A stretch of DNA of 60,096 bases, taken from assembly GCA_001938485.1 (NCBI GenBank), contig MQRK01214937.1:1-60096 (forward strand). Reading direction: 5' to 3'. The position numbers and the translations under genes were made by a program. This document shows positions 6,058 through 51,350 of the stretch, piece after piece (position 1 is the stretch's first letter; the number at the start of each line of letters is the position of its first letter). This stretch comes from Girardia tigrina (Eukaryota). Below the pieces are notes generated by a model. It was not told where the DNA came from. It did no database searches and saw nothing but the letters and a program-made list of their open reading frames with translations.

Positions 6058-6856
6058 CGAGTATAAGGCAAGAGAGTCTCGACACGGAAGCACGTGTATC
6101 TCTATCGATCTGTGTTTTTATAATTTTATTTATTTCAATGAGTCATTTTTCTATGTTTTGTGCAATTTCCGGAGCGAAGAAGTTTCATTTTAGTGAAAAC
6201 GAGTTGTGAAAAATAAAGTTGTACAATTTTTTTTAATGAGTGACTTTGTAAATATATTTATTATTTGATTTTGTATTCCGACGCGGAGAAATTCGTTTTC
6301 GGATGTCGTGTATAAATGTTCGGTTTTTAGCAGTTGTACATTCCCATTTTATTATGACTGTTCGATTCCAAAATATTAATGCAACTACTATAAATAAATA
6401 CGCATATTCGTTTGTATGACCTTTTATTAGTGAGTTTTGATATTTATATAATTTTAATAAATATATTTATTGTTTTATTTGTATTCAATTATTTGGGCAT
6501 TAACCCAATCTCAATTGTTAGTTTGCGTTGGGATTTGGATATTAATTGACTGGCAATACCGCGGGGAAGAGAGCCGACTTGTAGTTCATTGTTTCATTAT
6601 TTGTGGGAACTGCTTGATGATTCTGTTTAGTTCTTTTGCTCATTTTCACAACCAATGGATAACATTGGACATTGGTTTCCAACCATTCATTCGGCTATAA
6701 AAAGACTCGGGAAATTTGAATGCATTTTGAATTTATGTCGGTACGGATTATCTTAGACATGTGCTGCTTTTTCTTTTCTACGCAAACTAAATTATTTTTA
6801 TAAATTTTGTAAACATTTTGTTTTCTAAAAACAAAAAACGCCATTTGTTAAATTTA

Positions 6857-6911
6857 TTTTTTACGACAATTAATTTCGACGGTATAACCGTCATCGTCAG
6901 GTCTCAAGAAA
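6857..6911 (-). ncRNA. Minimal type I hammerhead ribozyme in Penelope pLTR (minus copy)
   Basis: Exact reverse complement of the motif at 7982-8036. Confidence 0.8.
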
Positions 6912-7981
6912 GAAATGAATTTTAAATCTGCTTATATAGGCAAGCAGTGATTATGTCATCTAAACACGCTTAATATGGTTTTCGAGAGACCCGTTTGCAC
7001 ATTAATCTTAGGATCTAAAGATCTGATGTATAGTGCTTCACAGGCCACCCTCTACCAATAGTTTTTAAAACGAGAACACAGAATTTTAAAATCATTTATG
7101 TTTATGTTTTCATTCAACTTGCAACCCTTTCTGCTTTCTGCAATATTATTCCCACCTACATTCCGACCATGTTCTTGGATTCTTTTACAAAGATGACGGG
7201 ACGTCTCTCTAATGTATGTGACATTACACCCATTACATGTAAATTTATATACGAGATCCGAACATAATCCAAATGGGGTTGGAGATTTATTACAAAACAC
7301 ATTTTATATGTTTGTGATATTATTTTTTAATTAAAGGCATTATTTACGCATTTTAAAATTGAACGTTTAAATTGAACAAATCCCTCTGAATATGGAATGC
7401 TTAAAACATATTTTAAAGTTGTTGAGTCTTCTTTATCATTTATAATCGGTTTATTAATTAATTTATCAATTGTTTCTTTGGTCAATTTCTCAACAATTGA
7501 TTTTGAGTAACCATTTTTATTCAATAGTTTTGTTAATTAATTAATGCTATCACAACTTTTTGTATAAGTTGATGATAATGACCAAGATCGAAAAATTAGT
7601 CCTCTAATCATATTATATTTGTATCGAGATTCACAAAAACTGTTTGGTGTTGTATATAACCCAGTATCAGTTTTCTTTCTGTGAATCTCAGTCTCATAAA
7701 TATCTCTTTTCCTTTTAATCAGTAAATCTAAGAAAGAACACAGAAAGGGTTGTAAGTTGAATGAAAACATAAACATAAATGATTTTAAAATTCTGTGTTC
7801 TCGTTTTAAAAACTATTGGGAGAGGATGGCCTGTGAAGCACTTTATATCAGATCTTTAGATCCTAAGATTAATGTACAAACGGGTCTCTCGAAAACCATA
7901 TTAAACGTATTTAGATGACATAATAATCCATTGATGACATAATCGCTGTTTGCCTGTATAAGCAGATTTAAAATTCATTTC

Positions 7982-8036
7982 TTTCTTGAGACCTGACGAT
8001 GACGGTTATACCGTCGAAATTAATTGTCGTAAAAAA
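7982..8036 (+). ncRNA. Minimal type I hammerhead ribozyme in Penelope pLTR (plus copy)
   Basis: GAC-CUGACGA-U-GACGG(UUAUA)CCGUC-GAAA-UUAA-UU-GUC. It has the core CUGANGA/GAAA, a 5-bp stem II, a palindromic AUUAAU helix III and stem I GAC/GUC extended by U-rich/A-rich pairing. Confidence 0.82.
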
Positions 8037-8367
8037 TAAATTTAACAAATGGCGTGTTTTTGTTTTTAAACATAATTTGCCATTATTTTTTAATTTTGTT
8101 TTCTGATTACATATTTTTTATTTACTATATTAGATGGCGTTGATGTAGAATGATCGCCATGAAAACACATGAGAAACACCAATTACTTGAACAATAAGGG
8201 CTCAAAGAGTCTGTCATAACTAGTCATGATTAGACATCAAAGAAATAGGGCTTCATAAAAGAGATTCCAATATTTTCAATTAGTAAACGATTCGAAAGCA
8301 ATTTTTCATCAAATTCCATATTCTTTTGCATTTTCATTTTCTTCCTTTAGCTACCATTTATCATATA

Positions 8368-9115
8368 TTAGGGTGAACCAAAAGTCTTTTCGTATTTCTA
8401 CGTCTTTTTGTTCAATTGTTTCTTCTTATCAAATAAAGATATTTTATATGCATGTGTTATATGTTTTTAATGCTCTTGAACTGCTCTATCACAATATATA
8501 ATAAAACTTCTAATTAGTCGTAAATATAATTTTTATGGTCTTTTAGATAAATCATGGAAAATTTTGAAATTCATGTTCTTTTACGCCATTACTGGAAACA
8601 GGGATTAAACCCAACTGAAGCAACAAAGAAGATATGCGAAGTTGAAGGCGATAATGTGGTCTCAAATCGTACTGCATAAAATTGGTTCAAAGGTTCAACG
8701 AACGCGACATTGACCTCGGAGATAATGCACGTTCAGGCCGACCTATCACCGTAGATTCCGGAGAAATTCGTGAAACTGTCGAGACAAATCCGTCAATAAG
8801 TACTCACAGATTGTCGGCCGAACTCGATATTCCTCAAACATCCATTGTACGACATCTTCACGCTCTTGGCAAGATCAATAGACGATGTCGACAAGTGCCT
8901 CATGAATTGACACAAATTCAAGCCGAAAAGCGTTTCGAAACTTGTCAAAAATTGCTTGAAAATCCGCGCGATGTCCGTTTCATCCGTCGAATTGTAACTT
9001 GCGATGAAAAGTGGGTTTACTTCAGTAATCCAGGCCAAGAAAATCAATGATTGGACCCCGGAAAAATAGCGAAACCGGTAGCGAAACGAGATCGTTTCTC
9101 AAGGAATTTCGAAAG
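8368..9115 (+). mobile_element. 3'-truncated mariner element (left TIR plus N-terminal half of a transposase pseudogene starting at 8554)
   Basis: TA-TTAGGGTGAACCAAAAG terminus. Translation MENFEIHVLLRHYWKQG...RSGRP...VPHELT...RIVTCDEKWVYF with stops. No right TIR seen. Confidence 0.85.
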
Positions 9116-12290: not shown

Positions 12291-12768
12291 TTTAAATTTT
12301 TATTTCAAATAATATTCATATCGAGCTAATTATTCGTTAAAACAAATTCGTTTTTTTATAATAATAATTTATACACCAAAATCAACAATTTTACTAAATC
12401 AACGATAAAACCTTTTAAAGAAATATAAATTTTGTTCTGTAAGCGAAACGACACAATTAAATTTGTTTTTCGTTTAAATTGAAATAAAATAGTGTCAATT
12501 GAAATAAATTTCGTTCTTTTGAATTATAAATAGTAAATAAAGTTAATTATTAAAATCTGTTCAATATTTGTTCTTTGTCCTTTCTTTGATATTAAATTCA
12601 AGATTACTTCGATCCACAAAAACAGAATAGGAAACGGCATTCATATACAACGAAATATACAAAAAAAAAATAACACAAATATAACCAAAACAAATACAAA
12701 CACAATTACAAGGTTTCCAAACTCTCCTGTACAACAAACAATAAAAAACAATAATAAAAAAAATTTAG

Positions 12769-13266
12769 CTTTAAAATTGTCATTAATCGGTCGACAATCG
12801 ATAGCATCAAATCGATTCAATTGGGTCAACTCGAAAAACAAATCGATATTCGTTCGAGAATTTCGTGAATAAACCGAGAAAACGTCGCCCGATTGGAAAT
12901 CGATTGAGTGATTGGAAAAGGTAATTAATCGAGTGTCTTGGAAATGAGTGGATGACGTCATGAGGAGATTGGATTTGAGAGAGAATTCCGTGTAACCCGA
13001 AGGACACTTGATGGGATTAGGTGTGTTATTGGGACAAGAAAAATCTTGCATCACTTCAATAATCGTTCGTTTTTGACGATAAAAATACGAATACAAATCA
13101 TCGATATTCGCGGCATCAGACAACTCAATCAAACGTTCTTTCTCCAAATCATTATCAGAAAGACACGCAAATTTCTCGAAAAACGAATTTCTCGGAACGG
13201 AATTCAAATCGAATCCACACAAAATAACATTCAACAAATCAACACTTGACGTTAATAATTTCGGCA
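12769..13266 (-). pseudogene. NDOR1: NADPH-dependent diflavin oxidoreductase FAD-domain fragment with its two halves in swapped order
   Basis: DLNSVPRNSFFEKFACLSDNDLEKERLIEL...YSYFYRQKRTIIEVMQDF and SNLLMTSSTHFQDTRLITF...FQSGDVFSVYSRN match the NDOR1/Tah18 motifs VPRRSFF...RPRRTILEVLCDF and HFQDVRLIEF...GDV. Confidence 0.85.
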
Positions 13267-14074
13267 CTAAAAGTATTCGATTTGATAATTATTATCAATA
13301 AATAAATAAACGGCGATCTTTGACCCGAAACCTTGACCACACGAGCGAAATTGCAGTAATTGAAAATCGATTATGGTGCTTATTGGTACTAGTGATAGTA
13401 GTAGTAATCGTCATGATGGCAGCGATAAAGACGCACTCGATCACCACTCTCACACTAGAGACTCGCCGGGAATTCGTCACACGAAGCGATAACCCGCGGC
13501 CGCATCGAGACACAATTAAACTGTGTAATTTATTTGTTTATTCTGGCACAAATAAAAGATAATAATAATAAATATCGTAATGATTTTGATTAAAATTTGT
13601 ATAGGATAAATTAAAATAAATATGTTTAAAAAATTGAAATTTTATCATTGTAGTTAGCTTAAATTAAAATTAAAAATTACACAAATAACAAAATTTTCTG
13701 TAATCTAAAATCTATTAACATTTATAAAATATAAGTTCAAAAAAAAATTTTTCAATGCATTATTAAAAAGAATTCCACACAAAACGACACAACAAATGAT
13801 TCAACAGTAAATTCCCAATTTGTTTTACTGCATCAAATGTCATTTAGTATTTACACCGTTATATATTATCTAGAAGTATAGAAATCGTTCCTTGTCTCTT
13901 CTCCTTTTTTTTTATTCATTTTAAAGTAATTGCATTCATTTAATATTCACAAATATTAATTATATATTATTTTTTTATATAAATATTAATTAAAATTATA
14001 AAATTAAATTATATATAAATATAAATGAAATAAAAGTAATTAATTAAATAATTAATTTATTATATAAACATATA

Positions 14075-17440: not shown

Positions 17441-19277
17441 TTATTAAAGGAAGAAATTAATTAATAGACGCCCACGTATTCCTTGTTTAATTAATTGCAC
17501 TTGTTAATTATCCTTTTTCTGGGACACCTAAAGACTTTGATTTAACAAGGGTCCCTATTAAATTTCTGTAATGTTATACTTGCAGTAACATTTTTGGACA
17601 TGCAACGTATTATTTTTCATGAGAATGTCTTGTTTTTTGTTTGAGGAGTTTTGATTCTTGTATAAATATGTGCTCGATTTTTGTAAAAAAATAATAAAAA
17701 TAAACGTATTCCACATTTTGGACTCCATTTTTATGGTAAAATCTTTGTTTTATGGAGGATAGAGAGTTGAGGTTTTGATGGCCGCCGATCCGTCGACAGG
17801 TAACGGCAGGTGCTTTTATAGCCTGCCGCGACTGTTGACGATCTGGCAGCTGAAGATGAGTAATAACTCCCCAACACATTCGATAATATCACCATGAAGA
17901 ACTCAACTCGCTAACCTCTATCAACCTTTTTTCCTCTTTGTTTTTCTTTTGTGTTGATGGTTAAAGGAAATGTTCATCGTCATTGTCGCTCTTCTCTCTT
18001 AGGAATGCAAATTGCTCTCTTAGGTGAGCAAAAACGAGTCGCAGATTCTAGCCCTGTCTAAAGAAAATCAACGGCTCCTTCAGGAAATCCAGGTATTGAA
18101 GCAATCAAATGACCAAAAGGAGGCCCAATTATCGAGACTCAATGCGGAGTTTGAGGACTACAGAAGACAGTCAGTCCCAATGTCGGTACATTGACCCATG
18201 GTCAAAAATATGTTCAATCTCAACAAAGAAATAAACAACTTCAAATGAACGTTGATGAAGAGAGAACCCAACAAAATATTATGAGCTATCAACGTAAAAT
18301 GGTCCAACGAGTTTCTCAAGAGCACCCGGAGCTAATTGTTGAGGCGGCTAGGAACATAGAAACTAAGATAGTCGATGATCCAAGAAACAAACCTACAACC
18401 TCCAAATCAAGAGTTTACGCCTCAATAATAAGAGAATATATGGCATCCTCTTCTCCGAGCATCATCAGCCGAACATAGAAACGGCGAGAACAGAGGAAAC
18501 GAAAAGCCTAACTGGACCAACAAGCGCGAATTGAAGTGGAGGTTATCAAAACCCATACGCGTTTGGATACAGTGGTTGGAGAGCAAGAAATCCTGGACGA
18601 AGGTGGTTTCGATTTTGAGAGGATTGACCGATCGCCACAGCCCAGCATACATAATAAAATCGCCGTACCCCTTTTAAAGATTGGTATTGAAGAAGTAATC
18701 AGGAGGCAAAAATGGTTAGATTGGGAAGCCAAGTACAAAACATGGAAGGAAGGTCGAGACCGCCTATTGTACTGATCAATCACAACTGGTCAAAACGAAG
18801 AATTTGTGGTTTCGACCGACTCGGTTGATTAATGACGATGAACAGATTCTTCCTTTTTTATTTTTCTTTTGATTGATTAACAAATAGCAACATTTAGAAT
18901 TTGATTGCGTTTTTTCTCTTGTGGTCTATCTATAAAAATATAAAAGATAAAAATAAGTAGTCTAATCTAAATAACAAATAAATAATCAATTAAATTAGGT
19001 AATGATTCATAAATGAATGCAGCATATGATATTAAAGAACATAAAGACACAGAATTCCGATCGATAAAAAACAAACAAAATTTTCAATCATTAGGAACCC
19101 GGTAGATACTTGATTTTGTTCACTGGTGAAAGGATGGGAGCAGATGAACTTAATTGGGTATGGCATAGACCATATACCAACATCAGGAAGAGGTACCTGA
19201 TGGGGTTTATGCCAAAATTAATGTTGGAATTGAACCCATAATTAATTTATTTAAAATAAAATTTATTGAACCCAGTA
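17441..19277 (+). mobile_element. Family A LTR (lacking the first ~70-80 bp), 5' LTR position
   Basis: High identity to 34469-35121 + 40595-41831. It ends GAACCCAGTA (other copies CCCAACA/CCCAGCA) and is followed by a PBS. Confidence 0.85.
18005..18832 (+). pseudogene. LTR-encoded ~270-aa coiled-coil protein with Arg-rich motif (unknown family), disrupted copy
   Basis: ORFs 18191-18478 and 18536-18775 join into one frame when compared with 40595-41384. A splice acceptor (ctcttag) precedes it. Confidence 0.75.
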
Positions 19278-19286
19278 TATTATTTA

Positions 19287-19304
19287 TGGGGGCTCAGCTG
19301 GGAT
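19287..19304 (+). promoter_or_regulatory. Primer-binding site, tRNA-Pro-like (copy 1)
   Basis: TGGGGGCTCAGCTGGGAT matches 15/18 of the canonical tRNA-Pro PBS TGGGGGCTCGTCCGGGAT, after a 9-nt spacer from the LTR end. Confidence 0.75.
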
Positions 19305-19584
19305 TTGTTTAAACAATGAATTTTTGTTTTTTTTTTGAAGTAAAAGAATTACATGATAACATTTTTTTTGAGAAATTGCCGAAATTTTTATTTAGTCTAA
19401 TGAAAATTTCAGAAGGTTTTTTAATGATGGCATATGTATTGGAATTTATTCCACGTCAACGGACAATATTTGTGTGGGTTTTATTGTCTTTGGTCAGTGG
19501 AAAAATGGCAGTTAATTATTACAAATGGTACGTCGAAAACACCATCAAAATAAATTGAGAAAAGAAAAACCGAAAGATAAATTT

Positions 19585-21389: not shown

Positions 21390-21628
21390 TCGCCGTGAGT
21401 CGAGATTTTAAAGCTGAACTCGTGATGGCGGATACCTTTTAGAGAAAAAAAATCACCACGATATGAGGTAAAACTACTGAAAATCGTCATGGTGGATACA
21501 TTTAAGATATTAAAATTACCACGGAGAGCGGAAATTGAACCTGCGCGCCCGTAGATTTTTAGGATTGTTGGCCGGTCCAGATTTTGAGGATTTAGGAGGG
21601 AACAATAGGCCGTAACCGTTATGGTAGA
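21390..21628 (+). repeat. Structured leader block; diverged second copy at ~23670-23846
   Basis: aatcgtcatggtggataca...gcggaaattgaacctgcgcgccc...cgtaaccgttatggtaga occurs at both sites. Confidence 0.85.
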
Positions 21629-22341
21629 CATCCTGGTCGAAGGTGATTTCGATTTTAAGAGGATTGACCGATCGCCACAGCCCAGCATGGATAACACAAT
21701 TGCCGTACCCCTTTCAAAGATTGGTATTGAAGAAGTAATCAGGAGGCAAAAATGGTTAGATTGGGAAGCCAAGTACAAAACATAGAAGGAAGGTCGAGAC
21801 CGCCTTTTGTACCGATTAATCACAATTGGTCAAAACGAAGAATTTGTGGTTTCGTCCGACTCGGATGATTAATGACGATGAACAGATTCTTCCTGTTTAT
21901 TTTTATTTTGATTGATTAACAAATAACAATATTTAGAATTTGATTGCGTTTTTTCTCTTGTGGTCTATCTATAAAAATATAAAAGATAAAAATAAGTAGT
22001 CTAACCTAAATAACAAATAAATAATCAATTAAATTAGGTAAGGACTCATAAATGAATGTAATATATGATATTAAAGAACATAAAGATACAGAATTCCGAT
22101 CGATAAAAAACAAACAAAATTTTCAATCATTAGGAACCCGGTAGATACTTGATTTTGTTCACTGGTGAAAGGATGGGGCCAGTTGAACTTAATTTGGTAT
22201 GGCATAAACCATATACCAACATCAGGAAGAGGTACCTGATGGGGTTTATGCCAAAAGTAATATGTTGGAATTGAACCCATAATTAATTTAATTAAAATAA
22301 AATTTATTGAACCCAACATATTATTTATGGGGGCTCAGCTG
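21629..22341 (+). repeat. Family A LTR 3' portion (to 22318) plus PBS (copy 3, from 22328)
   Basis: Repeat of ~18590-19300, ending ACCCAACA then TGGGGGCTCAGCTG. Confidence 0.88.
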
Positions 22342-24738
22342 CGTTTAAAAAAAAGAACATTAATTTGTGTTATCTAACATTTCAAATTAATTATATCAAA
22401 AATATATATAAATGTATATTTCCCTTTTTTACTCCTTTACTCAATGAATTTCCTTAGAGCTTTTTGCTTTTGAAATCAAATTATAGATCCTAGATTGGAT
22501 TTAAATTATTCGAACATAATACAATAAATGTTTTCGATAAACAAAATTATAGCTGGAATTATTATTGTTCTGAGAACCATTAAAAATGACACTGAATCAG
22601 ATAATGATCCGTTATTACATAGAATTGAACACGTCCCGAAATAATTTATCTTCAATTATGATTTGCAATAGTATAAACGGGAATAATCTTTGTTCCATAA
22701 AACCAGCATTATTATGGTACGACAATTAGAAACAAATTCTTTACCTCTTGAAAATCTCAGCCTTTAAGACAAATCATATTTTTATTTAGTAAATACAAAT
22801 ATTCTGTTTGTTCGAGTTGCAATGTGATTTTTGTCGCTTTCATCAACCGATCCTTCGAAACATACACCAGAAAAGAGATCATTGCCACCGAATAATGGTA
22901 AGGAAGGATCGTTTCCACCGATAAATTATTGGGAAATATTATGAAGAAAATGAAATGAAGTATAAAGAAATAACATCTACGACAAGTCATTTGAGATTTG
23001 GTATTTTCTGTTCCATGTGAGATAATAAATAAATAAAGAGAAATCAATTAATCGTCGTTCTAGATTGGTACATTTTTATACACTAGAGTCGGATTTCGTT
23101 TACATTTTCCGATCGTGGATACTTGGCATTTAATGTTACACCAAGGTGTCGATTATCCAAAAAAATAAACAGACGAAAAACGATGATGATAATCATGAAA
23201 GACAGTAATAATGAAAATAATAGCTAATTTTAATTATTTATATTTCAAATTAAATCTCCCTTTGTAAAATAAAAAAAATGCGTAAAATAGGAATCATATT
23301 AACGCAATTTAATAATTAGTAATATAAAATGATAATATTTATCACTTATTAAAGGATACTATTACTTAGGGTAAAGTAAAAGGTATCATTAAATGGAATG
23401 ATCTAACATTTATTTCAAATAAAGGATGAGAGAAATAAAACCGAATTGGATCAAGTGTTTGAAAATAGAGAATAAGAAATACATATCTGTTTAAATATGA
23501 TAATTGTTGAAAAGCGGTAACAAAATTAGTTTAAAAATAATAATAATAAAAATAAAAAAATAATCTCCCATAAGTCTATTAAAGACAAAGACTTTACTAC
23601 CAAGAACGTCACGAAAACCACTTATGACCTCAAACTAAACGAAATAAAATTAAGATTATATATGATAAAATTACCACGATTGGATGTTGTAAAGCGAGAA
23701 TCGTCATGGTGGATACATTGGAATTAACGAAATTACCACGGAGTGCGGAAATTGAACCTGCGCGCCCTTAGATTTTTATGATTGTTGGCCGTTCCAGATT
23801 TTGAGAATTTAGGAGGCAACAATAGGTCGTAACCGTTATGGTAGATATATACTTTTGAAAACGAAAATGATATGATTAACCATCGATGATCCTACTAAGA
23901 GCAACTAAGTCGGACTTAGTGGTGAAGTAGCGGCGGATACTTGGTAAGGCCGGTTAGCGAAAATATCAACGAACACCACAGACAGATCATAATAATAATT
24001 CTTCCCCAGTAGGTGGACTCTGAAGACGGAGAAAAATAACGACTGATCAGATCTGTACTTCTAATAAAACCGAGAAGAATAAACAACCTCTTAAAATGAA
24101 CACAAAGGAATACAACAACACAATGATAAAGAAACACTTAGATAATAAATATTTCTTTTCCAGTAGGTGGATTCCGAAGAAGTGAAGAGAAAGAGTTATT
24201 TATGAAAAGCCACAATAAGAGCTTTTAACTGACAAATAAATAGCTTCAATTTACCAAAAGGTGTTTTAAAATAAAAAATGAATATAAAGTGATATCAGTC
24301 CTAATAAACAATTAACGAAAAAGAAAAGTACATAATTAGTCCATAAGAGAGAGAACCTGGATAAAGTGAATTATAGATATAATGTGTTTAACCCTCTTCC
24401 TTCGTTCCTTGCTTTATTTTTTGTTGTTTGTTTTACTTCCTTTTCTTTCTTTTTCTTTCAGTTTTAAAAGTTGGAAAGGAAGACGCGAATACAATAAGAT
24501 TTTTGTGGTTTTAGAAAAAGAAAAGGAAAATAACACAATCTCAAGAGAGCAAGTTGAATTAAAGAAGATAACTACCATAAATAACAAACGTCAATTTCTT
24601 TTCAAAAGCAAGATTGATCTTCGAAGTCGATTTGCTAAAACCCAAGCGAACCAAAAAATTACCCAATATTACGAGAAGAGACCGAATATAATTCTAGTGA
24701 ATTCAAGGAAATCATTGGTGCCAATGCATGTCATAGCA

Positions 24739-25150
24739 AGACGCATGCAGACGCATGTGGATGGTCTCCAATAGCTCGTTTTCAACGATTACCATTATAT
24801 CTTGAAGGAATTGCTCTTACTCTGTATGTAAACGAGTTGGAGAAAAGAACCATTTCTGATTTTGCAGTAGCAGTAACCTTTCTTAAAGGACAATTTTTAA
24901 CGTCAATGACACCAACACAAAGATATAATAAATTTATAAGAAGACGACAATTTCCCGAGGAATCGATTTTTGAATATGCAACTGAACTAAAGAGACTGGC
25001 TCAAAATGTCAATGTATCGGATAAACCTGAAGATGCAATAAAGGATGAGCAAATACTTGCTATATTTATGGGATGAATAAAAGATCGACGAACATCTAAT
25101 CATCTATATCTACAAAAACCTACATCCTTAAATACGGCCATATCTATGGA
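24739..25150 (+). pseudogene. Gypsy-type gag (capsid) fragment
   Basis: ADACGWSPIARFQRLPLYLEGIA...FLKGQF...RRRQFPEESIFEYATELKRLAQ...FMG*I...PTSLNTAI. Confidence 0.85.
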
Positions 25151-25185
25151 GTCAAGAAGATGAAGTATATAAAAAAGATAAACCA

Positions 25186-27420
25186 TTGTGGCAGATAGCA
25201 GAAATTTTACGAGATCATTGGACTGAAATGACGCAAGAAAGTGTTGATGCCACAAGGGAATTGATAATTCGAATATCGAAGGAATATCAAGTCGATCCAA
25301 GAAAACTTAAATATCATGATGGTACCACTGAATATGAATTGCATTGTAATGAGCGAATACTGACCAGAGAATTATATGAAATACTTGGAATTGATCCAAA
25401 AGGATCAGAAATACTACAATATGACAAAAGACCTATCCCAAGCAATGATAGACCAATAACCGAATATGATCTCTGGCAAAATTTGAAAAAGATTGTCCCA
25501 ATCTTGAGGAAGATGAGTCAAAATGACAACTGGAAAAATTTGCCGTATCCCGGAAACCAATATCATGACTGTATTCAATGTATAAAGATGTATAATGAGT
25601 TTATAAAGATAATAGTGGGGGAAATGAATGTTGAAGGATCACTGTCAGAGGATAATGGAGCTCGGCTGACTATTAAATTAATCATTTCAAACGTAGAATC
25701 GGCCTTTGACACAATCCCAAATGAAAGCTAAAGATATTTAATAAGTACTATCAAATTGAGGGAGAGCAACTACCAGAACTCTGTAAATTAATTTAGAAAT
25801 GCGAGGAAACAATTAAAGGAGTAGATAACCCTAGGACTTATCAATTATATGTTATCTTTCCAAATTTCAACAAGTATCATCTTAGCGAGTTACATAGTTT
25901 AAATACGAGAGAAATAATCCATGATTTAATTAACTTCTATAATATATCAGAGAAGACAGAATTTATGGTTGAGGATTATTAATTGTTTCACCTGAGAACA
26001 CCAATCCAGATGGGTAAAAACTTATTCGAAAATGGAATCTGGCCACATTGTGAGACTGAAATTTATCTTATTTCCGCACAAGAAATACTATTGCCAACGA
26101 TGGACTGGGAGTTGGAACTCTAAAAACTCAAAGTATTTGCTGCTTGCCTCAATATTGAGGATATTACCTATATAAAGAAATTTCATCAAGAACTAGGTAT
26201 TGCGGATAAAGTTTACAGCCAAATACTTGACATTTTACAAAACTTCCATCTTTTAACATTTGAATTGAGCAATATGGGAGAAATAATAAATCTTATTCAA
26301 GATTTACGGAATATAATTCCTGAAACAAAGCAACATGTAATAAATGAAATATTACAGAAATTTGCAAGGAACAAAACTTGTGAATTATTAAATCTATGGG
26401 TATATTTCCCCGATGAGACTGTCATCACAGTAGAGATATCCAGATCCACCGACAATGAAACACTCTACAAAATAATTTAAAAAATAATTGAAGAAAAAAC
26501 CAAAGACGAAGGGGAAATTGATTTCAAATTAGTGTATAATGGTACAAGAATCAAACGTAACAGTAAATTAGTTGTTAACAGTGGGCTATGGAATGGACGA
26601 AGATTATATGTATTGAATTGGAAAGATTTGGAAGAAGATTCTACCAGAAATGCTCGATTTTGTCGAGAAATGAATGAAAAATTTCAAAGGCTATATGGAA
26701 AATATGTTCAACCAGTAATAAAAAATCTTGGTGTATATAACAAAAAAGAAAACATTACAGAATGTTCAACAAAAGATTCCGAAGATATCCAGATAATATC
26801 CGAACAGTCATCAATGATAGAAATAAATACATTAGAGGAAAATAGAGATAAAAGTTTATCATCCCTCTGTATTGATGAAGACGAGAGATTAACGAAAGAA
26901 AATAACGATTTAAAACGAATTAAATTTCTCCTTTGTCATAACAAAATGAAGAAAGAGGAAATAATATCTATATTAACAGATTTAGACCCATTATTAGTGC
27001 CGTTACATGAGTTGAGGGTATTATTATACCTCTGTGAAAGATCAAAATTTATTCGAGAGTGGATACCTACTAGAATAGAGTTATTATTAGATATATGGAT
27101 TAGAAGGAAATAGAAACTGATGAAATAAAATATAAAATAAAGGTGGTAATGCTAACTAAAGAAAATAGTCAGACATTTACATTACCTATATATGCTACAA
27201 TTAATGATATTAAGCATTTATTACCATATAGAGATAATTATAACATAATAATTGATGGTAACCTTCATGAAAATGATGTTTATCTCGGTCTGACAAATTT
27301 GGATGAGGAAATCGAAAATGAAATAGAATTAGAATTACCGGAAAAACAGAAATGGTTATTAAAAGTATGGAACCCTCCACAAATGGAAGAAAATGGCACC
27401 GAAATAACTAATCAGAAATT
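25186..27420 (+). pseudogene. Accessory polyprotein region with about four ubiquitin-like (beta-grasp) domains
   Basis: Repeated ~70-80 aa units with ubiquitin-like pattern, e.g. NLWVYFPDETVITVEISRSTDNETLYKII*KII...FKLVYNGTRIKRNSKLVVNSGLWNGRRLYVL. Long reading frames are broken only by scattered stops and frameshifts. Confidence 0.55.
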
Positions 27421-27472
27421 TGAAGGAAAAAATTTTGAAGAAGTATTAAAGGCATCAAAAGGATCACCTTTG

Positions 27473-29300
27473 ATGACAATATTAATGATAATGTTGATTC
27501 TATTTTCAAATATTGCGAAGTTTAATGCATTTTATGGCTATGATTGTGATAATATGGAAATTGGAGCAAAGCAATATTCACTACTAGACACCGAAGACTG
27601 TCCAGAGGCCACGCCATCAACATTCATAAGTATTAGTAATAATACAATATATCACGTATATCAGGAATCACTTTATCAAACAGTGGCGATTAGAGAATGT
27701 AAAGTATTTAGAAGAAGATTTGCCTTCAACTGTGGATATCGCTCCTGGACATCAATAGTTAGTGATGGGTTAACAAAAGAAACAATTCATCTCACAAGAC
27801 AACAATGTGAAGACGGCTTTGTTACTAGAGAAATTAAAATTGAGGATTCAAGAGTAAGAGCCGTAAAAAAACGCAATCACGTATTCAAAAATCAATAGAG
27901 CAGGAAGAGTTACGTCAACGGCTGGCGATTGTGAAGAAGGTATATTTTCCTTGAATGGCGAAGTTGCGAAGCACATAGTAGTGATAGATACTTTCGAAGT
28001 AGAATTGAAAGAATTTAAAGGACATTTTGATGCCAATATGGGGGAAATGAAAACACACCATAAGTGTTTCACAAAAGACAGATCTTGCGAATATGGATCA
28101 TCAATATTGATTTATGATGTTAGAACGGAAGAATGCAACGTTGTGCTACTTAAAACAGCAACATTTGATGAATTTAAGTGACAAAATCTTAGAGAACCCG
28201 ATGATGAAGAAGTTATTGAAAGTCAAACCAGCCAAGAGGAAATTTAAAAAAAGGTTATTGGAAATAAAAGGAAAAGTGTACAATTGCAAGCTGAAGATAC
28301 TCCAACAGCCTTAATTACTAATAAAAAATAGGAATGGATGCACTTCATTAAAGGAGATCACTAAATGTGGGAGGCAAGTATTCAAAACAAATTACAGGGA
28401 GATTTATGTTAGTAGATATAAACTACCAACAATTTTTGGACAAATAAGTCCGGAAGATATGAATCATGAGTCCTATTTTAATAATAAAATGGAATTTCTG
28501 TACCATAGAGGTTTGTCAAATTTAGAACATACCTATTTCGACTTAATAAAAAATGATTGTAAACTAAATAAGGAATTACTGCGAACTAAATTAGCAATGT
28601 CAGTCACTAATGTCGATTTTATAGTACCTTTACCTCCTTTAAAACCTGCGGAATTTTGGAGAATTGTTGGAGAGGCTATGTTCATATACAAATGTGAAAA
28701 GGTAGTATTGAATATCATAGCAGAAAACACAGAATGTACAAATGAGTTGAAAATAAAACTCAAAGGACAAACTCGTTATGTCCAACCAATTACTAGACTA
28801 ATTTTACCAATAGAGTTCACACCTCTTAGAATAAACTGTTCAATAATAATGGCTCCTCTTTATAGAAATGACAACGGTAAATGGGTACGATTGCCAGATT
28901 TCCAACCTTTACTCACAGAACCACTACAATTTAGCTTAATGAAATTGGAAAAGGGTCGAAGATTTGAATCTATTAATATTAAAGATATTGGTTATTATAG
29001 TGATGTCGACTTTAAAAGAGCTAAAAAACATATATTTTTCCCTATAGCAAGGAATCAAATTATTTCTAAAATAATACATACGGTAGCATCAGACATGGCA
29101 GGGTATCAGAAACCTGATTTTGAACTGTTACTTTCACCGGATCATTTTTCAAAAGCAGCTCATAATGTAATGGAAAGACTATGGGGGAAATTCATTATTT
29201 TTGGTCAAGCAGCTTCAGGAGTATTAGCTATTATTATCATGTGAAGTATGATAAAAACTATAATAGCTCAATTATTGGCGTGTTTTGACGTCTACAAAGA
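27473..29300 (+). pseudogene. env: Envelope glycoprotein, chuvirus-G / herpes gB-like (class III fusogen), disrupted
   Basis: Signal-like MTILMIMLILFSNIA, then GYDC...YSLLDTEDC, FNCG, QQC, C(K)LNKELL, GEAMFIYKC, CTNEL, QPITRLI, NCS..MAPLY, WGKFIIFG and a C-terminal TM segment. Confidence 0.82.
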
Positions 29301-30745: not shown

Positions 30746-31489
30746 TTACTCCCATATTTCAATTTCAGGAGTATTATCATCTAAGTCGACTGAGTTTTCA
30801 TTCCAGGCCTGAAGAATGTTTTCAATTGGATCTTTCCAGCCACTGTTGACATTGTTTTGATCCAACACTGTACTAGATGGATTTAAATTTTTGTCCAAAG
30901 AATCCACTGTCAAAATTGGATTTATCCTTTCCACTACATCTGGAGGGTGCTGAGATGATGTTGAAGGTATTCCGGAGTTGAAATCATCGATGAATTCATC
31001 CTCGATTTTCCGATAAATGTCATACACAGCTCGTGCATCCTCCTGTGAATTGTGCTTTCCCGGTCTTTGAATTTCTTTACCCAGAAGAACGGATGCGACA
31101 TCCTGCAACTTATTGTATTGACCTTCTCCCTTTGGGTACATATTCCATTTTTCCAGCGCTCTTGCGGTTGCCAAGTCTCTTATACCCAGTAGAGACTTCT
31201 TGTCGATGCACAGATGTGTGACTTCCATCTGTAAATCGTGTCCAACAAGGATTTTTCCCTTGCAGATTTCTCTGATTCTTTTAAGGATGTCATACTCATC
31301 CAGCTGCCTCCGAAGCTGTCTTTCTGTAAGTCCATGGACTTTGGTACCTAATTGTTCAATTCGATGTCTTGGAGTGATCAAGCAATCTATAACGGTTTTT
31401 CCTTCCTTGTTCAATATTGTAACCGACACTGACACTCTCGAATTGTCAGCCATTTTACACGAGAATTCAGCATCTAAAAACAATAAGTG
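30746..31489 (-). CDS. DEDDh 3'-5' exonuclease (REX4/ISG20/RNase T-like) carried by the retroelement; part of a longer decayed ORF (~32180-30500)
   Basis: LFLDAEF (ExoI), TKVHGLT, KILVGHDLQME (ExoII), IRDLA, KLQDVASVLLGKEIQ and HNSQEDARAVYDIY (ExoIII). Confidence 0.88.
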   Translation of the reverse strand, partial: HLLFLDAEFSCKMADNSRVSVSVTILNKEGKTVIDCLITPRHRIEQLGTKVHGLTERQLRRQLDEYDILKRIREICKGKILVGHDLQMEVTHLCIDKKSLLGIRDLATARALEKWNMYPKGEGQYNKLQDVASVLLGKEIQRPGKHNSQEDARAVYDIYRKIEDEFIDDFNSGIPSTSSQHPPDVVERINPILTVDSLDKNLNPSSTVLDQNNVNSGWKDPIENILQAWNENSVDLDDNTPEIEIWE

Positions 31490-32029
31490 TTGTCTTATTT
31501 CCTATTTCTCCAAATGTTTTCGGATAAAGCTTTTCCGGTGATTAAAATCCTTTTCGGTTGGGTTATAGACAGAACCAACTAGATGACCTTCATCTTTATA
31601 TAATTTCGGATTATAATTGGCCTTTGGGTATTATCTGTATTCGACCGCAACGATAGCCGGTCGATCCGCAGCTTGTATAAAAAGGTTTTTGTCATCGACA
31701 GTTATGCGCCATTTTGACGATCGAGCACCGAATTGATAGACTTCTCCTTGTTGAAAACCTTTACGAGTTCAGCGGCAATATGTAGTTCAATGTCGCCATT
31801 GGACATTTCGTAACATATGTCTGAGATCATTTTGGATTGATTGTTGAAAATTAATTCAAGGTAGATCTCCATTTCGAAATCCGTTGTCCGAATATAATTA
31901 GGGAAAGCAAGATTGTCACGGAGTCACCTTTTGAATTGTCCCGTTCGAGTACTCAACATGTTGCAAAATTCCACATAGATTTTGCCGGATCTCGTAGTCG
32001 ATTTTTGAAGCATTGACTGTTTCATTGGT

Positions 32030-32173
32030 TTGATGGATCTGGATTGAATTGGATTGATGGATCTGGATTGAACTTGATTGATGGATCTGAATTGAACTGG
32101 ATTGATGGATCTGGATTGAACTTGATTGATGGATCTGAATTGAACTGGATTGATGGATCTGGATTGAATTGGA
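32030..32173 (-). repeat. 6 x 24-bp tandem repeat, probably coding ([PQ][IV]Q[SF]RSIN)
   Basis: Units TTGATGGATCTG(G/A)ATTGAA(T/C)T(G/T)GA read in frame into KPMKQSMLQKSTTRSGKIYVEFCN. Confidence 0.88.
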
Positions 32174-32539
32174 AAACGTGAGATTGTTTGAAAATTTTCT
32201 TATTAAAATTTTTTTGGCAAAATTTATTACGTTATATAGTATATATATATATTAAATTTATTATTGATTTTTTTTTAAAAAATTAAAGAGAAATTTTTCT
32301 CTCCTCCAATCATGATACATATTGTTTTTGTACTTTATGAAAATACAGATGGCACAACGAGATAAAATAAAATAAAATAAGATAAAATAAAATAAAATGT
32401 CACTAAATACAATAAATTAAGTGTTACTTTCGTCGTTTTTATACCAGCGTTGACAGGACCTCTGCACTCCTTTCAGGTTCAAGATGATCCTTTGCAACAC
32501 AAGATTTGATATAAAGAATTGCTCTACGTAGGAAAATTA

Positions 32540-33630
32540 GACAGGTGATGATGATTGTCGCAGATACGACAATAGATAAGAATAAAAGTTTAGTTTAATG
32601 ATCAAAAGACTTTCATTTTTTGTAACAGTAATGTTCGATTGCATTTTCAGATTTTTAGAAGAAGAGAGTGTAATTGGTGATTGTTTGACTGTTGAGGGCT
32701 TGCTTTTATTAACGAAGGTAGAAGGTATCATAAGCTTCTTGAGATCAACGAGAGTAGTTCTCCAACAATTGTCACTTTTGAAGAATGATACATATAGAAG
32801 TTTGATGGCATATTCTTCTCCATAATTTAGATCTCTGACGACTTATCTTGTTATTGATTGATTTAATATTATCATATATTCGATTCCCATAAAGGTTGAG
32901 GATATGATTACTTTTTCATTTTTTTGTGATTTTCTGTAAAACTGTATTGAATTCTTCATTATAGTAATTTTAACTTGGTTTGTCAGATTAATGATATCCA
33001 TTGTATAACTTTCAGCATAAACAAGGTTCCAATGTTGCATTGAATATTGTTGATCATTGTCTATATACGCTTCAGAATATGTTATGTTAAATACATATTG
33101 TTTATTAATTTCCAGATTATCGATCTTGAGAAACTTAGTTGGATACATTATTTTTTTAGAGAAAAGATTGGAATCCTTTGATACTTTATAATGATTTTTA
33201 TCAATTTGTTTGATTTTAGGTTGATACTGACACTCAACCATGTAGGGTCGATGGTCAGCATTTTGGACCATCTCTTTGTCCAAACAGCCATGACCGTAAT
33301 ATATTGCGGTTCAACTCCAGTGGAGTTTTCATTCTCCCAGTATTTGATTCGAAATGTATAGGGGTGATTAATTTTTAAATCTCGCATTATAACTGTTTTT
33401 ATTGTATTTTTTTAACATTATATGATTTGAAGATTACCCTTCTCTAGTGTTGACTGAAATATTTCAATTAAATTACATTGACAATTCCAAATTATCATAT
33501 TATAGGATGAGAAAACCTTTAACTGATTCAGCATTGGTAATTCCGTTTTTGCAGGAAAATAATTAACATTTTGAGCTTGGGATAAAGGTATGGTAAGCCA
33601 ACAAATCCACGGGATAATTGATAGATAATT
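32540..33630 (-). pseudogene. Accessory secreted/membrane ORF downstream of integrase, with FnIII-like beta strands
   Basis: Signal-like YLSIIPWICWLTIPLSQA, then the repeated motif DLKINHPYTFRIKY / NLEINKQYVFNITY. Confidence 0.4.
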
Positions 33631-33659
33631 GTAATTTTTACTTTTCTTTGGTTTATCCA

Positions 33660-34200
33660 TTTTTTGATTCTCATTTTTCTCACAAACTCTGTACGGTCCT
33701 TTGTACGGTCTTTTTAATTTAGCCGAAATGCCCTTTTTCGGTTCTGGTTTGTGCAAATAAACCAAACCTCCAATTTTCAAATCATGATCTTTAGCCTTCT
33801 TGTCGTAAGCTTCTTTGTATTCTTCTTGATTATATTTGATCTTTAAACCTGCTTTTTCCCAAGCTAATTGCATTCTTTCTTGCATTAACATTTTATAATT
33901 AGGAACTTCGACGGAATGAGTTTCTGGTTGTTGATAATTCAAATTAATAGGCATATTGTTTTTTCGTAGGTACATTAGATAAAAAGGTGTTTCTTGTGTG
34001 CTGGGATGCACAGCATTATTATAAGCATAAACACATGGTTTCAAATGAACGTCCCAATCAGTTTGTCCATCATTAACATAAGACTCAATCATGTTCAGTA
34101 TTGTTCCATTAAATCTTTCGACAAGTCCATCAGTTTGAGGAAGATAAGCCGATGTATTAATTTTTGTTATTGAAAAATAGTCTGTAACACATTTGAAAAA
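33660..34200 (-). pseudogene. Gypsy integrase core C-terminal half and GPY/F domain
   Basis: TSAYLPQTDGLVERFNGTI, WDVHL, YAYNNAVHPSTQETPFYLMY, KLKRPYKGPYRV. Confidence 0.93.
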
Positions 34201-34204
34201 TATT

Positions 34205-34468
34205 ATCAAAAGAAAACAAACGAATATCAGTTATCGGAGCAGTACAATGCAATTCAAAGGAAATATTTGTATGATTGACTACAAACTTTAACTTTTGATT
34301 TAAAACATTTAATCATTTGTGATCTGAATTTATTATAATTATATCATATAATCTTAGATTGTGTAACTCTTTCATGCTATGAGTGTTGTCTCAAAGATTT
34401 TATCTGTAGTGATTAGATTATTTTTATTGTACGATTCCGGGGCGGAATCTACGTAAATCCCCCAGTAA
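34205..34468 (+). mobile_element. 3' end of the family A internal region
   Basis: Similar to 43640-43872, including the hairpin GATTCCGGGGCGGAATC shortly before the LTR start. Confidence 0.65.
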
Positions 34469-39890: not shown

Positions 39891-40594
39891 CATAAATAAT
39901 ATTACTTTTAATAATAACATTAATAATACAATTATAATAATAATTTAAAAATAAAATAATAATGATAATAATAATAATCAAATAATAATTATATAAATTT
40001 TTATTAAGTCAATCCTTTGGCGAACTTCTCCGCCCAAAGCAGGAGTACCCTCATAATGAATGGGTCCCTGCGGAGGAAAGAAAAACTCGCCGTAAAGGAA
40101 TATAATAATTTTAATTTCAAGAATACTAATAATAATATAATAAAAATAATTATGAAAGTGATAAAATTAATAATTATTAACAATAATTATAATAGTAATT
40201 ACACTAATAATAATAATAATTAAATAAATGATTATAAAAATAATATTATTAATTATAGCAATATTATTTATATTCATAATAATTTAGATTCTAATAATTT
40301 TAGTAATAATAATAATATAATAAAAATAAATAAAAATAAAATTAATGATGTTATAATAAATTTTCATTAAGATTTATATATATTTCTTTATTATTATTAT
40401 CCCAATTAACTGCCTCGCGTCCCTGAGCAACCTGCTCAAACAAAGGGAAGGTTAAAATGGGATTATCCGTCCTGTTTATTAGATTTATTTATTTGATTTA
40501 TTTATTTATTATTTTTTAAATTTTTTATTTAGGACAACGGGTACGCTTATTTATATATTTTATATTTTTCATATTTACAGAATCCCAACAAAAC

Positions 40595-41831
40595 TAAGTC
40601 GCAGATTCTAGCCCTGTCGAAAGAAAATCAACGGCTCCTTTAGGAAATCCAGGTATTGAAGCAATCAAATGACCAAAATGAGGCCCAATTATCGAGACTC
40701 AATGCGGAGTTTGAGGACTACAGAAGACAGTCAGTCCCAATGTCGGTACATCGACCCATGGTCGAAAAATATGTTCAATCTCAACAAAGAAATAAAAAAC
40801 TTCAAATGGACGTTGATGAAGAGAGAATCCAACAAAATATTATGACCTATCAACGTAAAATGGTCCAACGAGTTTCTCAAGAGCACCCAGAGCTAATTTT
40901 TAGGCGGCTAGGAACACGGAAACTAAGATAGTCGATGATCCAAGAAACAAACCTACAACCTCCAAATCAACAGTTTACGCCTCAATAATAAGAGAAGATA
41001 TGGCATTCTCTTCTCCGAGAATCATCAGTCGAGCACAGAAACGGCGAGAACAGAGGAAACGAAAAGCCCAACTGGCTCAACAAGCGCGAATTGAAGTGGA
41101 GGTTATCAAAACCCATACGCGTTTGGACACAGTGGTTGGAGAGCAAAAAATCCTGGACGAAGGTGATTTCGATTTTAAGAGGATTGACCGATCGCCACAG
41201 CCCAGTATGGATAATAAAATCGCCGTACCCCTTTCAAAGATTGGTATTGAAGAAGTAATCAGGAGAAAAAAATGGTTAGATTGGTAAGCCAAGTACAAAA
41301 CATGGAAGGAAGGTCGAGACCGCCTTTTGTACCGATCAATCACAACTGGTCAAAACGAAGAATTCGTCCGACTAGGATGATTAATGACGATGAACAGATT
41401 CTTCCTTTTTTATTTTTCTTTTGATTGATTAACAAATAACAACATTTAGAATTTGATTGCGTTTTTTCTCTTGTGGTCTATCTATAAAAATATAAAAGAT
41501 AAAAATAAGTAGTCTAACCTAAATAACAAATAAATAATCAATTAAATTAGGTAAGGACTCATAAATAAATGTAACATATGATATTAAAGAACATAAAGAT
41601 ACAGAATTCCGATCGATTAAAAACAAACAAAATTTTCAATCATTAGGAACCCGGTAGATAGTTGATTTTGTTCACTGGTGAAAGGATGGGACCAGATGAA
41701 CTTAATTGGGTATGGCATAGACCATATACCAACATCAGGAAGAGGTACCTGATGGGGTTTATGCCAAAAATAATATGTTGGAATTGAACCAATAATTAAT
41801 TTAATTAAAATAAAATTTATTGAACCCAGCA
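40595..41831 (+). mobile_element. Family A 3' LTR, right part (contains the LTR ORF to the stop at 41384)
   Basis: Matches 18035-19277, ends GAACCCAGCA and is not followed by a PBS. Confidence 0.88.
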
Positions 41832-41852
41832 AACGTTTCTGGGTACCAAGGT

Positions 41853-41996
41853 CCAATCGCGACCGTTGCTGCCTAGGCTAGGGACTTAGGAACCAATCAG
41901 AAGCGTTGACAAGTGAACCGGAACCGTTGCTAAGGTAATCTCCACCGTTGCTATGGTAACCTGATTTGTTGCCATGTTAACCGTTGCCATGGCAAC
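41853..41996. promoter_or_regulatory. Cluster of RFX X-box motifs and CCAAT boxes
   Basis: GTTGCTAAGGTAAT (41926), GTTGCTATGGTAAC (41947), GTTGCCATGTTAAC (41968), perfect GTTGCCATGGCAAC (41983). CCAAT at 41853 and 41893. Confidence 0.65.
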
Positions 41997-42074
41997 GGGT
42001 GACCTTACTCCCCGGGGGAAGGTGGTGACGAACATACATTTTCCCTCTACTTGACCACCCTGTATCGATGACGC

Positions 42075-43400
42075 CAGAAGATAAAAAACAGCGTTTTCAA
42101 TGGGTAATGATTTTTTCCAATTTATCAGAATACCCTTTGCACTCGCAAATGCTCCGAAATCCTTTCAGACATAACAGACTCTAGATTAAAACAACATTAT
42201 TATTGGCCAAATATGAAACAAGATATTACCGAGGGGATCAAGAAGTGTACCATCTGTGCTTCTAGAAAAGATACTGGTCATAAAATCAAAGCTTTTAAAG
42301 CCAAGTAAGCTCACTATGGATACAGTAAAAATAGATATAATTGGTCCATTCACTGAAACATACAAAGGCAACAAATATATATTAAGGTGTACAGACTTAA
42401 TGTCAAAATTTCAAGAGGCAATAGCCCTACCGGATCTAAAAGCTCAAAAAGTTGATAAAGCTCTTTTTTAAAGAAATAATTAACCGGTATGGAACTCCAA
42501 GAATAATACTTACTGACCAAGGAAGAAACTTTATGAGTCATGTTTTTGATGCATTAATAGATATAAATATTGAAGGAAGTATAGTGTATAAATATTGAAA
42601 TAAATATAAAGGAAGATCTTATACATAAAAAAATGAGAACAAATAGGTGGTCAAATAGAAAGATATAACAGAACATTGATTAATACACTGTCATGCTATG
42701 TTGGAAGATATCAAAAAGATTGATAATAATTCCTTTCAGTCTGTTTGTTTGCGTATCGATCTGCAAGGCATGCAACTACTGGATATGCACTTTTCGAATT
42801 AACGTATGGCATATCTTACAATTTATCAATTGATCAGGAATGACAACTTGACTTATATAAATATATGGATGATTCTGAATATGTGCAACATATGAAGGAA
42901 GAATTACCAAAACTATGGAAAATAGCACAAGATAATATCAAATTTAATCAAGAAAATGTAAAGGAATTATATGATAAAAGAACTAAAGCTCACACTTTCA
43001 AAGTGGGAGACAAATTATTAATCAGTCTACCTGAATATATTCCAAGAACTATTAATAAATAAAAGAGACCATACATAGGACCATTTGAAGTAAATCCAAC
43101 CAATATAAGAGTAAAGCAAGTTGATCGTTTGATGAATAAATCTTTCACGATTCATGTAAATATCTGTAAACTGGCAGCAGATGAAGAAACTGATAAAGAA
43201 GAGTATGCAATTAAAACAAGATCTGACCCAATTAATAGAAAAAAAAGAATTATGAAAGAGCCAATTAAAAGTTATAAATTGAGAAATCGTATTTGTAGTA
43301 TTAACACGATCAGCCAAAAGGATCAAAATTTTTCTGGTACAGATGTATCTCAGACAGATCATCATATGAAAAGCTACGAAACCAAAACAGAAAAAAAGGA
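42075..43400 (+). pseudogene. Decayed Gypsy pol (RT fragment, integrase) of a divergent family A relative (A')
   Basis: FQFIRIPFALANAPKSFQ; RLKQHYYWPNM...CTICAS; IDIIGPFTETYKGNKYILRCTDLMSKF; ILTDQGRNF; YDKRTKAHTFKVGD. Confidence 0.88.
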
Positions 43401-50599: not shown

Positions 50600-51350
50600 A
50601 ATATAGAAAAACATCTACAGAATCTGGAAGAAATATTCCTTGGACTCGAAAAAAGGAACCTGAAGATTAAACCAGAGAAGTGTGAATGGGCTCAAGTTTC
50701 TTGGGCCATGTCTTGATTTCAGATGGAAAAAGTCCAGATCCTCAAAATATTGAGAAAATAGTTAATCTTCTCACCCGCTAAAACTATTACTGAATTTCTA
50801 CAGGAAATTCATAACAGAATATTCAAAGAAAATGAAGCTTCAATATGATATAACAAACCCCTTTTATGAATCACAAAATTCTAGTGACAATTTGACTATA
50901 TTGGCACTAGTAATTCAAAAAATAATATTAAAATGAAACATAAACAAGGTATAGCAAATGCAAATATGAATTTTATATCCTGGTTACAATAAAATAACAC
51001 TAAAATAAGCACTTTTTTATGGAGATGGAAAACGTGATACTCTACGACAAACGCAACGGAATATATACTAAAACTAAGCCGTTTTAAAGGATAAAAGATT
51101 CACTCCAAAAGAGAAGATATCGTTGCATAATTAACGATGGATTTTCATTAGCGTAAGTAAATGAAAATTCTTTATTATTTATAAAAATATTAATGTTTTA
51201 GAGTGCTTCACAAATATCATAAAAAATAACAAGATCATTAAAAACATTGAATCTAGATTAAAACAATATTATAATTGGTCAACTATGAAACGTTATGAAG
51301 TGGATCAACAAGTGTACCATCTGTGCTTCTAGAAAAGATACAAATCATAA
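50600..51350 (+). pseudogene. Highly decayed Gypsy pol (RT, RNase H, integrase ZnF)
   Basis: HLQNLEEIF...LKIKPEKCEW, FLGH...PDPQNIEKI, KHKQGIANAN and RLKQYYNWSTM...CTICASRK, similar to 42180-42280. Confidence 0.8.

Follow-up and report, generated by a model that had tools for sequence, protein, structure and literature searches.

A repeated array of predicted helical and ubiquitin-like modules between Gag and Env in a decayed Burro-like Ty3/Gypsy copy of Girardia tigrina

The window analysed here (the whole stretch of 60,096 nucleotides, which is an entire 60-kb contig in the fragmented assembly of the AT-rich, 1.43 Gb genome of Girardia tigrina) carries at 23926..29300 on the + strand a decayed copy of an env-bearing Ty3/Gypsy element, internally deleted and truncated at its 3' end, as delimited by blastn against sister copies. 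In the relatives of this copy the genes are ordered Gag, array, Env, Pol, most simply as one polyprotein, and the array is built from units of which one is securely ubiquitin-like by sequence, with a predicted helical bundle ahead of every unit. The array has evolved under purifying selection. We consider the overall architecture of the element very probable, while the fuller reading, a decayed Burro-like copy whose array is a cytosolic scaffold engaging the host ubiquitin/SUMO machinery, seems to us about evenly balanced between right and wrong.

Across 23926..29300 the blastn identity is 90–99% with the closest subfamily (W, the window's own) and 67–84% with a second subfamily (V), and similarity to sister copies stops at 29300, with zero matches extending beyond. 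The Gag capsid domain (Retrotrans_gag, PF03732, E 2.4e-5) occupies 24639..25149 on the + strand, with a stop near 25076 and 95–99% DNA identity with the closest sister copies. At 25149..25150 the alignment jumps, that of sister locus L026 skipping from 7448 to 8678 at window position 25149, which marks a deletion of ~1.23 kb; in sister copies the lost stretch is occupied by CCHC zinc knuckles and an acidic linker (zf-CCHC, E 1.4e-9, in the frame of locus L020). The class III viral fusion glycoprotein (env, 27480..29300, +) lies in three frames, matched by PF24664 at E 1.2e-19, 0.0038 and 1.1e-37, and ends near the transmembrane region. With frameshifts near 25.7, 27.1 and 27.9 kb, in-frame stops in the second and third units (U2 and U3) and pol missing, the window copy is dead.

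Several other features of the window are worth recording. Three to four partial copies of a ~1.3-kb block lie at 18029–19308, 21400–22340 and 40589–41862, and a relative of this block sits ~5 kb upstream of gag in L026; the block is possibly an LTR, or else a leader, of the window family. No LTR-sized match was found between the upstream and downstream flanks among the fragments fetched. Decayed RNase H/integrase fragments at 42063–43193, 50855–51056 and 52572–52930 are ~70% like V pol, and are separate from and non-contiguous with the element at 23.9–29.3 kb. A further separate element on the − strand (30746–34230) combines an RNase T-type exonuclease (PF00929, E 2e-7) with an integrase fragment and contains a 24-base tandem repeat (32002–32193). 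An FAD_binding_1 frame (12641–13288, − strand, E 4e-8) is perhaps a host gene fragment, and the stretch 6818–8075, with inverted repeat arms of 140–190 bases at 93–95%, resembles a small DNA transposon.

A DNA search with 25186–27420 returned at least 54 matches (the best 40 of 170 candidates scored) in two identity bands, and it is these bands that define W (~85–97%) and V (68–77%). Queries of the genome with env and with U3, the latter giving at least 152 matches (the best 150 of 276 candidates scored), recovered the larger and more distant families X, Y and Z, whose copies hold stop-free frames of 2700–3150 residues from Gag through Env and carry five units each as against the four of the window family. 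The Env of X and Y is ~43% identical to that of W, and X and Y are 64% identical to each other. The four units lie where the preliminary description of this DNA had placed them, with its quoted motifs in the translated + strand, and they recur in the sister copies and in the distant families. Protein searches gave no homologue beyond the Girardia tigrina genome, a weak null given the length windows and short-word seeds that limited most of these searches.

The gene order follows from natural copies with intact stretches of frame. Gag is joined to U3 in one frame at locus L042 (1105 residues, 55 of them X from N), U3 to env at L014 and L035, and env through the transmembrane stretch to the protease active-site motif at L090, while another frame runs from the env tail through the protease. 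When junctions are counted over the loci that hold both markers (loci overlap and hence are not distinct copies), 4 of 11 are open from capsid to knuckles, 4 of 15 from knuckles to the first unit (U1), 18 of 28 from U1 to U2, 18 of 36 from U2 to U3, 6 of 18 from U3 to the next helical segment, 10 of 20 from that segment to the last unit (U4), 10 of 17 from U4 to env and 1 of 4 from env start to env end; from env end to the protease core, none of the 17 loci with both markers is open. A programmed stop or frameshift between env and protease was considered and set aside because the break positions differ among copies, as expected from decay. Since each junction is open in some natural copy, a single Gag-array-Env-Pol polyprotein is indicated, and the expectation that relatives would hold the array in one ORF with its neighbours was borne out for gag, env and pol across natural copies. 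Downstream of env, Pol reads PR-RT-RNaseH-IN in V loci (L030/L092, L093) and in distant ones (L079, L081, L084), so the idea that the window family has no pol was discarded. The Gag capsid with CCHC knuckles (PF03732, PF00098; the knuckles being deleted from the window copy) is a Ty3/Gypsy trait.

The loci of the relatives also hold frames outside this order. Long extra frames lie 3' of the integrase in X and Y (L087:4468–7983, L079:4549–8064, L081:7161–9134), the 1172-residue frame of L087 having zero Pfam matches, and a RING finger protein frame (E 9e-11; L024:459–1430, − strand) is found several kb past a truncated V env.

We assessed the fold of the units by sequence profiles and by a structure model, with the unit limits set by motif in the translated + strand. 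U3 (26394..26615, +, in-frame stop at 26478–26480) is secure as a ubiquitin-like, beta-grasp domain by sequence. Its profile, a 15-row alignment searched against PDB sequences, found almost exclusively ubiquitin-like domains (22 sequences at E up to 10), with an Arabidopsis ubiquitin-like protein as the best match (E 3e-4) and ubiquilins, BAG6, Rad23 and Dsk2 also present. Pfam ubiquitin matches 9 of the 15 members (best E 8e-7), all nine being X and Z rows; the family X counterpart matches at E 0.0026 and 1.6e-4, under the curated cut-off, the best Pfam match of a W member is Rad60-SLD (E 0.016), and a Pfam scan of the window's own array pieces gave no ubiquitin match at E up to 1. A profile of the distant families covers U3 jointly with the bundle ahead of it (E 6.5e-7).

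U2 (25839..26075, +, in-frame stop at 25980–25982) is likely ubiquitin-like through its homology to U3 (hhalign 77%, E 1.9e-5; found by the U3 profile at E 2.8e-6) and to the first unit, unit a, of the distant families (hhalign 61%). Its sole match against PDB sequences, ISG15 at E 1.8, is non-significant, and positional correspondence to unit c of the distant families was rejected (0.2%). U1 (~25303..25515, +), the weakest of the four, is a probable short ubiquitin-like domain, as suggested by hhalign with U3 (36% over 26 columns, covering the C-terminal motif only), by the model, and by collinearity with unit b of the distant families over 109 columns, yet at 5.6%. U4 (27131..27337, +) is a divergent unit that scores 7.8% against U3 and shares 27–34% identity with the unit that closes the array in X, Y and Z. 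Neither U1 nor U4 has a significant match among PDB sequences.

Fold evidence for the counterparts of U3 and U4 comes through the related family Y, the window family having no confident model of its own. The model covers the 1054-residue accessory region of a Y copy (35-row alignment, mean pLDDT 65.7, pTM 0.33; the MAFFT placement of window-family rows was wrong past U1 and was excluded) and contains five strand-strand-helix-strand-strand units at residues ~80–147, 299–394, 509–586, 702–779 and 981–1049, each preceded by a helical bundle. The top three Foldseek matches are linear ubiquitin chains of ~300 residues (E 4e-6 to 4e-5). The U3 counterpart aligns with Z 11.5 and rmsd 2.4 over 77 residues, and the U4 counterpart aligns to the C-terminal domain of ISG15 with Z 11.2 and rmsd 1.6 over 72 residues, which makes the ubiquitin-like assignment of U4 well supported by way of its modelled relative. 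A tri-ubiquitin chain aligns to residues 509–1050 over 214 of its 224 residues and a tetra-ubiquitin match begins at residue 299 (unit b), while the first unit has no match among the structure rows listed. Sequence identity to ubiquitin-like chains in these structural matches is 4–20%. A single-sequence fold of one V copy was uninformative (pLDDT 37), and ESM Atlas clusters of ubiquitin and Rad60-SLD at 0.83–0.84, under 0.9, are leads only. The ubiquitin-like fold claimed for all four units, and the beta-grasp models expected for each, thus stand for U3 directly, for U4 via its counterpart and for the five units of the Y model, are likely for U2 and remain weak for U1, and the V copy added nothing to them.

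The units are not in tandem, as had been thought, but are set ~100–170 residues apart by a predicted helical bundle and linker, and the label poly-Ubl accordingly overlooks the bundle ahead of every unit. The predicted helical segment between U1 and U2 (25580..25835, +), frameshifted and with stops in the window copy, is recognized by sequence pattern, its fold being assigned by analogy with the Y model. The predicted bundle ahead of U3 (26124..26390, +) is common to the distant families by profile match and model, and the one ahead of U4 (26895..27110, +) is weakly like the TFIIS N-terminal domain by profile matches and model. These TFIIS matches are full-length but non-significant (7faw, E 0.2; 1eo0, E 0.32) and rank below unrelated proteins; the bundle has a nearly invariant Trp and no Pfam match, and the fold lists of the Y model are dominated by the ubiquitin-like units. 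Two identities considered for the bundles were dropped: as copies of one domain, homology among them was undetected (0.3–1.4%), and as BAG domains, the BAG1 match is non-rigid (rmsd 15.7) and serves as a lead at most.

It is clear from comparison of W with V that the array evolved under purifying selection, with dN/dS of 0.06–0.25 over its seven segments: 0.06 in U1 and 0.12 in the segment after it (dS being near saturation for these two), 0.17 in U2, 0.17 in the bundle ahead of U3, 0.25 in U3, 0.18 in the bundle ahead of U4 and 0.25 in U4. The comparison genes give 0.06 for capsid and 0.12 for env, the row labelled "env N" having been excluded with 12 codons aligned only. Values within W of 0.29–1.06 fit decay after insertion. 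The units are moreover retained in lineages whose Env is merely ~43% identical.

The surface of the units differs from that of ubiquitin. No di-glycine occurs in the last 15 residues in any of 37 rows (15, 11, 5 and 6 rows for the units), as the preliminary description had noted for the window. Placing U3 positions through the ubiquilin alignment, and using ubiquitin residue numbering, the Ile44-equivalent is T in 5, V in 4, C in 4, I in 1 and M in 1 of 15 rows, and K stands at the Lys48-equivalent in 4 of them. Within U3 only a Leu-Trp pair close to the end of the unit is invariant; it is echoed in U1 and U2, and units 1–3 have a family-specific G-L/I-W motif in common. A non-conserved classic surface together with this pair makes a simple ubiquitin decoy less likely and points to a surface specific to the family. 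Of the earlier suggestion of a decoy or scaffold, the decoy is therefore weakened, because the two U3 equivalents are variable, and the scaffold is kept as a proposal.

The distant families add two features to the region. In their linker after the U3 counterpart (L078, L080), a V/E-I-D-L-T/S motif, which fits the SUMO-interacting type, is kept in all 15 rows covering an otherwise variable linker; none of the four W and V proteins scanned has it. Families X, Y and Z also carry a Bcl-2-like domain just N-terminal of the env signal (L078:7392–7850, L080:6754–7188 and related loci) that resembles Bcl-xL at E 0.03 over the BH1-BH2 region and is matched by Pfam Bcl-2 in 1 of 9 members. In these families ~400 residues, this domain included, separate the U4 counterpart from the signal, whereas W has no room for it: its U4 core motif lies 83 residues from where env starts, as against 445 in a distant family. 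Given the Bcl-xL-like domain in the distant families, we read the array region as host-directed cargo.

We then propose how such a polyprotein might be partitioned, on the basis of motif and hydropathy. By hydropathy, the Env ectodomain is bracketed by two hydrophobic stretches, one immediately before it and one closing it; from Gag through the array, W and V have none. The first of these (27467..~27529, +), like an internal signal peptide, is the sole hydrophobic window in the U4 frame and occupies the same position in sister and distant copies; in the window it shares with U4 the stop-free frame 27104–27898. The last unit is thus in frame with the env signal, as had been claimed, while the ORF start given for it, 27143, is a by-product of a frameshift, as the helical segment and U4 share a frame in half of the overlapping loci counted above. 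The array does not run directly into the glycoprotein: U4 ends ~43 residues short of the signal-like stretch, and further from it in relatives, from which the array is likely cytosolic and cut from Env. We prefer to see in it an accessory product of the Gag side, its cytosolic tail, rather than a component of Env.

In this scheme Gag and the array would be synthesized in the cytosol; the ectodomain of Env alone would enter the ER, directed by the internal signal; Pol would be returned to the cytosolic side by the transmembrane stretch; and signal peptidase would cut Env free of the array. The linkers repeatedly contain E/Q-I/V-N/Y-x-L motifs, in the distant families too; W and V both have one in the linker that joins U3 to module 4 (26817..26831, +, in the window copy). 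These motifs may be sites where the element's own retropepsin cuts, which would free modules 1–3 and leave module 4 on the signal stub. The modules may then act as a cytosolic, non-conjugatable scaffold that engages host ubiquitin/SUMO machinery and protects the element. A precedent for such pressure is the Gag-Pol-like PEG10, reported to be degraded in a ubiquilin-dependent way (10.1101/2025.03.28.646022). Of 30 bins, 17 are covered by contigs from a single run whose type is unrecorded, a result that says nothing on transcription.

The alternative with the most weight, though we hold it to be unlikely, is that the modules are structural, a matrix-like or Env-leader-like array that links the capsid with the glycoprotein and brings in budding factors, above all through a membrane-tethered module 4. 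In its favour, all lineages seen have the array lying between Gag and the signal stretch, all five groups conserve module 4, and ubiquitin fused to Gag can replace a late domain. However, the candidate protease site would split modules 1–3 from module 4, unit 4 of the distant families is separated from the signal by ~400 residues that include a Bcl-2-like domain, and the Ile44-equivalent of U3 is not conserved.

Less probable still, in our estimate, is that the modules are nuclear factors whose targets are chromatin or elongation factors, allowing the element to evade silencing or to direct where it integrates. The full-length TFIIS N-terminal matches with their nearly invariant Trp, Rad60-SLD as the top Pfam match of the window-family U3 and the SUMO-binding-like motif conserved in the distant families would agree with this, but those TFIIS matches are non-significant and outranked by unrelated proteins, module 4 would be membrane-tethered unless cleaved again, and the window family is without the SUMO-binding-like motif. 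A sharper version, to which we give the same low weight, has the array mimicking SUMO-like-domain and elongation-factor adaptors, with protease-freed modules, together with the SUMO-binding-like motif and the TFIIS-N-like domain, entering the nucleus to disarm SUMO-dependent transposon silencing; if true, the array would be a means of counter-defence, duplicated and reshuffled within these lineages.

Pestivirus polyproteins carry ubiquitin inserts that are cut by host deubiquitinases, and fragments of such a ubiquitin-bearing polyprotein are among the fold matches here, but for the units to be processing signals of this type, or conjugated modifiers, is very improbable and largely refuted by the absence of di-glycine in all 37 rows, with the 4–20% identity to ubiquitin-like chains and the element's own protease also against it. 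The least credible reading, already refuted for U3 and U4, is that the sequence was captured or duplicated and is neutral, or that its likeness to ubiquitin is due to chance; although protein searches gave no homologue outside the genome and U1, U2 and U4 have no significant PDB sequence match, it is opposed by the dN/dS values, the deep-lineage conservation and a Z above 11 for two units.

Among the closest known systems are the giant Gypsy-like Burro/GYPSM1 elements of planarians. The preliminary description did not recognise the architecture from described Gypsy elements, but the overall layout is already in print: the Burro paper describes a Gag with CCHC knuckles, motifs of Ubi2/SUMO-like and BCL2-like type, an env lying in frame between gag and pol, and a dUTPase between PR and RT, and likewise makes a general suggestion of a host-directed role (PMC6431247). 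The likeness of the families here lies in Gag with CCHC followed by a Ubi2/SUMO-like motif upstream of an in-frame, mononegavirus-type class III fusion glycoprotein within gag-pol, and in the distant families extends to the Bcl-2-like domain ahead of env and, in family X only, to a weak dUTPase between PR and RT (L079:3–4859, residues 657–748, E 0.002). In that paper Burro has one named Ubi2/SUMO-like motif where we find four (window family) or five (distant families) spaced units, and about half of its polyprotein is unannotated; the window family differs further in its far shorter Gag-to-Env region and in the absence of the Bcl-2-like domain. MATH, BIR and ankyrin domains, also Burro cargo, had no Pfam match in the frames scanned, which took in few of the accessory ones upstream and downstream. 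Judged by Burro's description, the window family is like a compact Burro that lacks the Bcl2 and MATH/BIR/ankyrin traits, and we call it Burro-like and do not count it as a Burro member.

GAG-ENV-POL errantiviruses with an HSV/gB-type Env, reported from Platyhelminthes, Bryozoa and Nematoda, likewise place a class III-type Env between gag and pol, its ectodomain lying between a signal peptide and a transmembrane domain, but the available text describes no accessory array, "ubiquitin" and "SUMO" occurring nowhere in the main text and seven supplementary files (PMC13524379). Among cellular proteins, ubiquilins, BAG6, Rad23, Dsk2, BAG1, Rad60/NIP45, ISG15, FAT10 and OASL resemble the units in having a beta-grasp within a larger protein; unlike these integral or tandem ubiquitin-like proteins, the units here are bundle-spaced, without di-glycine or a conserved Ile44 patch, and bear the family-specific G-L/I-W motif. 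A repeated four- or five-fold array of units is without a description in the literature searched, within its limited coverage of subscription papers.

What is added here to the published layout is therefore the repeated helical-plus-ubiquitin-like module, its variable number of units, and the loss or absence of the Bcl-2-like domain in the window family. Few Ty3/Gypsy elements have large host-directed cargo, Burro-like ones among them, and in several families much of the sequence between Gag and Env now resolves into repeated modules under selection. Being small and separately expressible, these domains offer a way to study how elements of this kind deal with the ubiquitin, SUMO and silencing pathways of the host.
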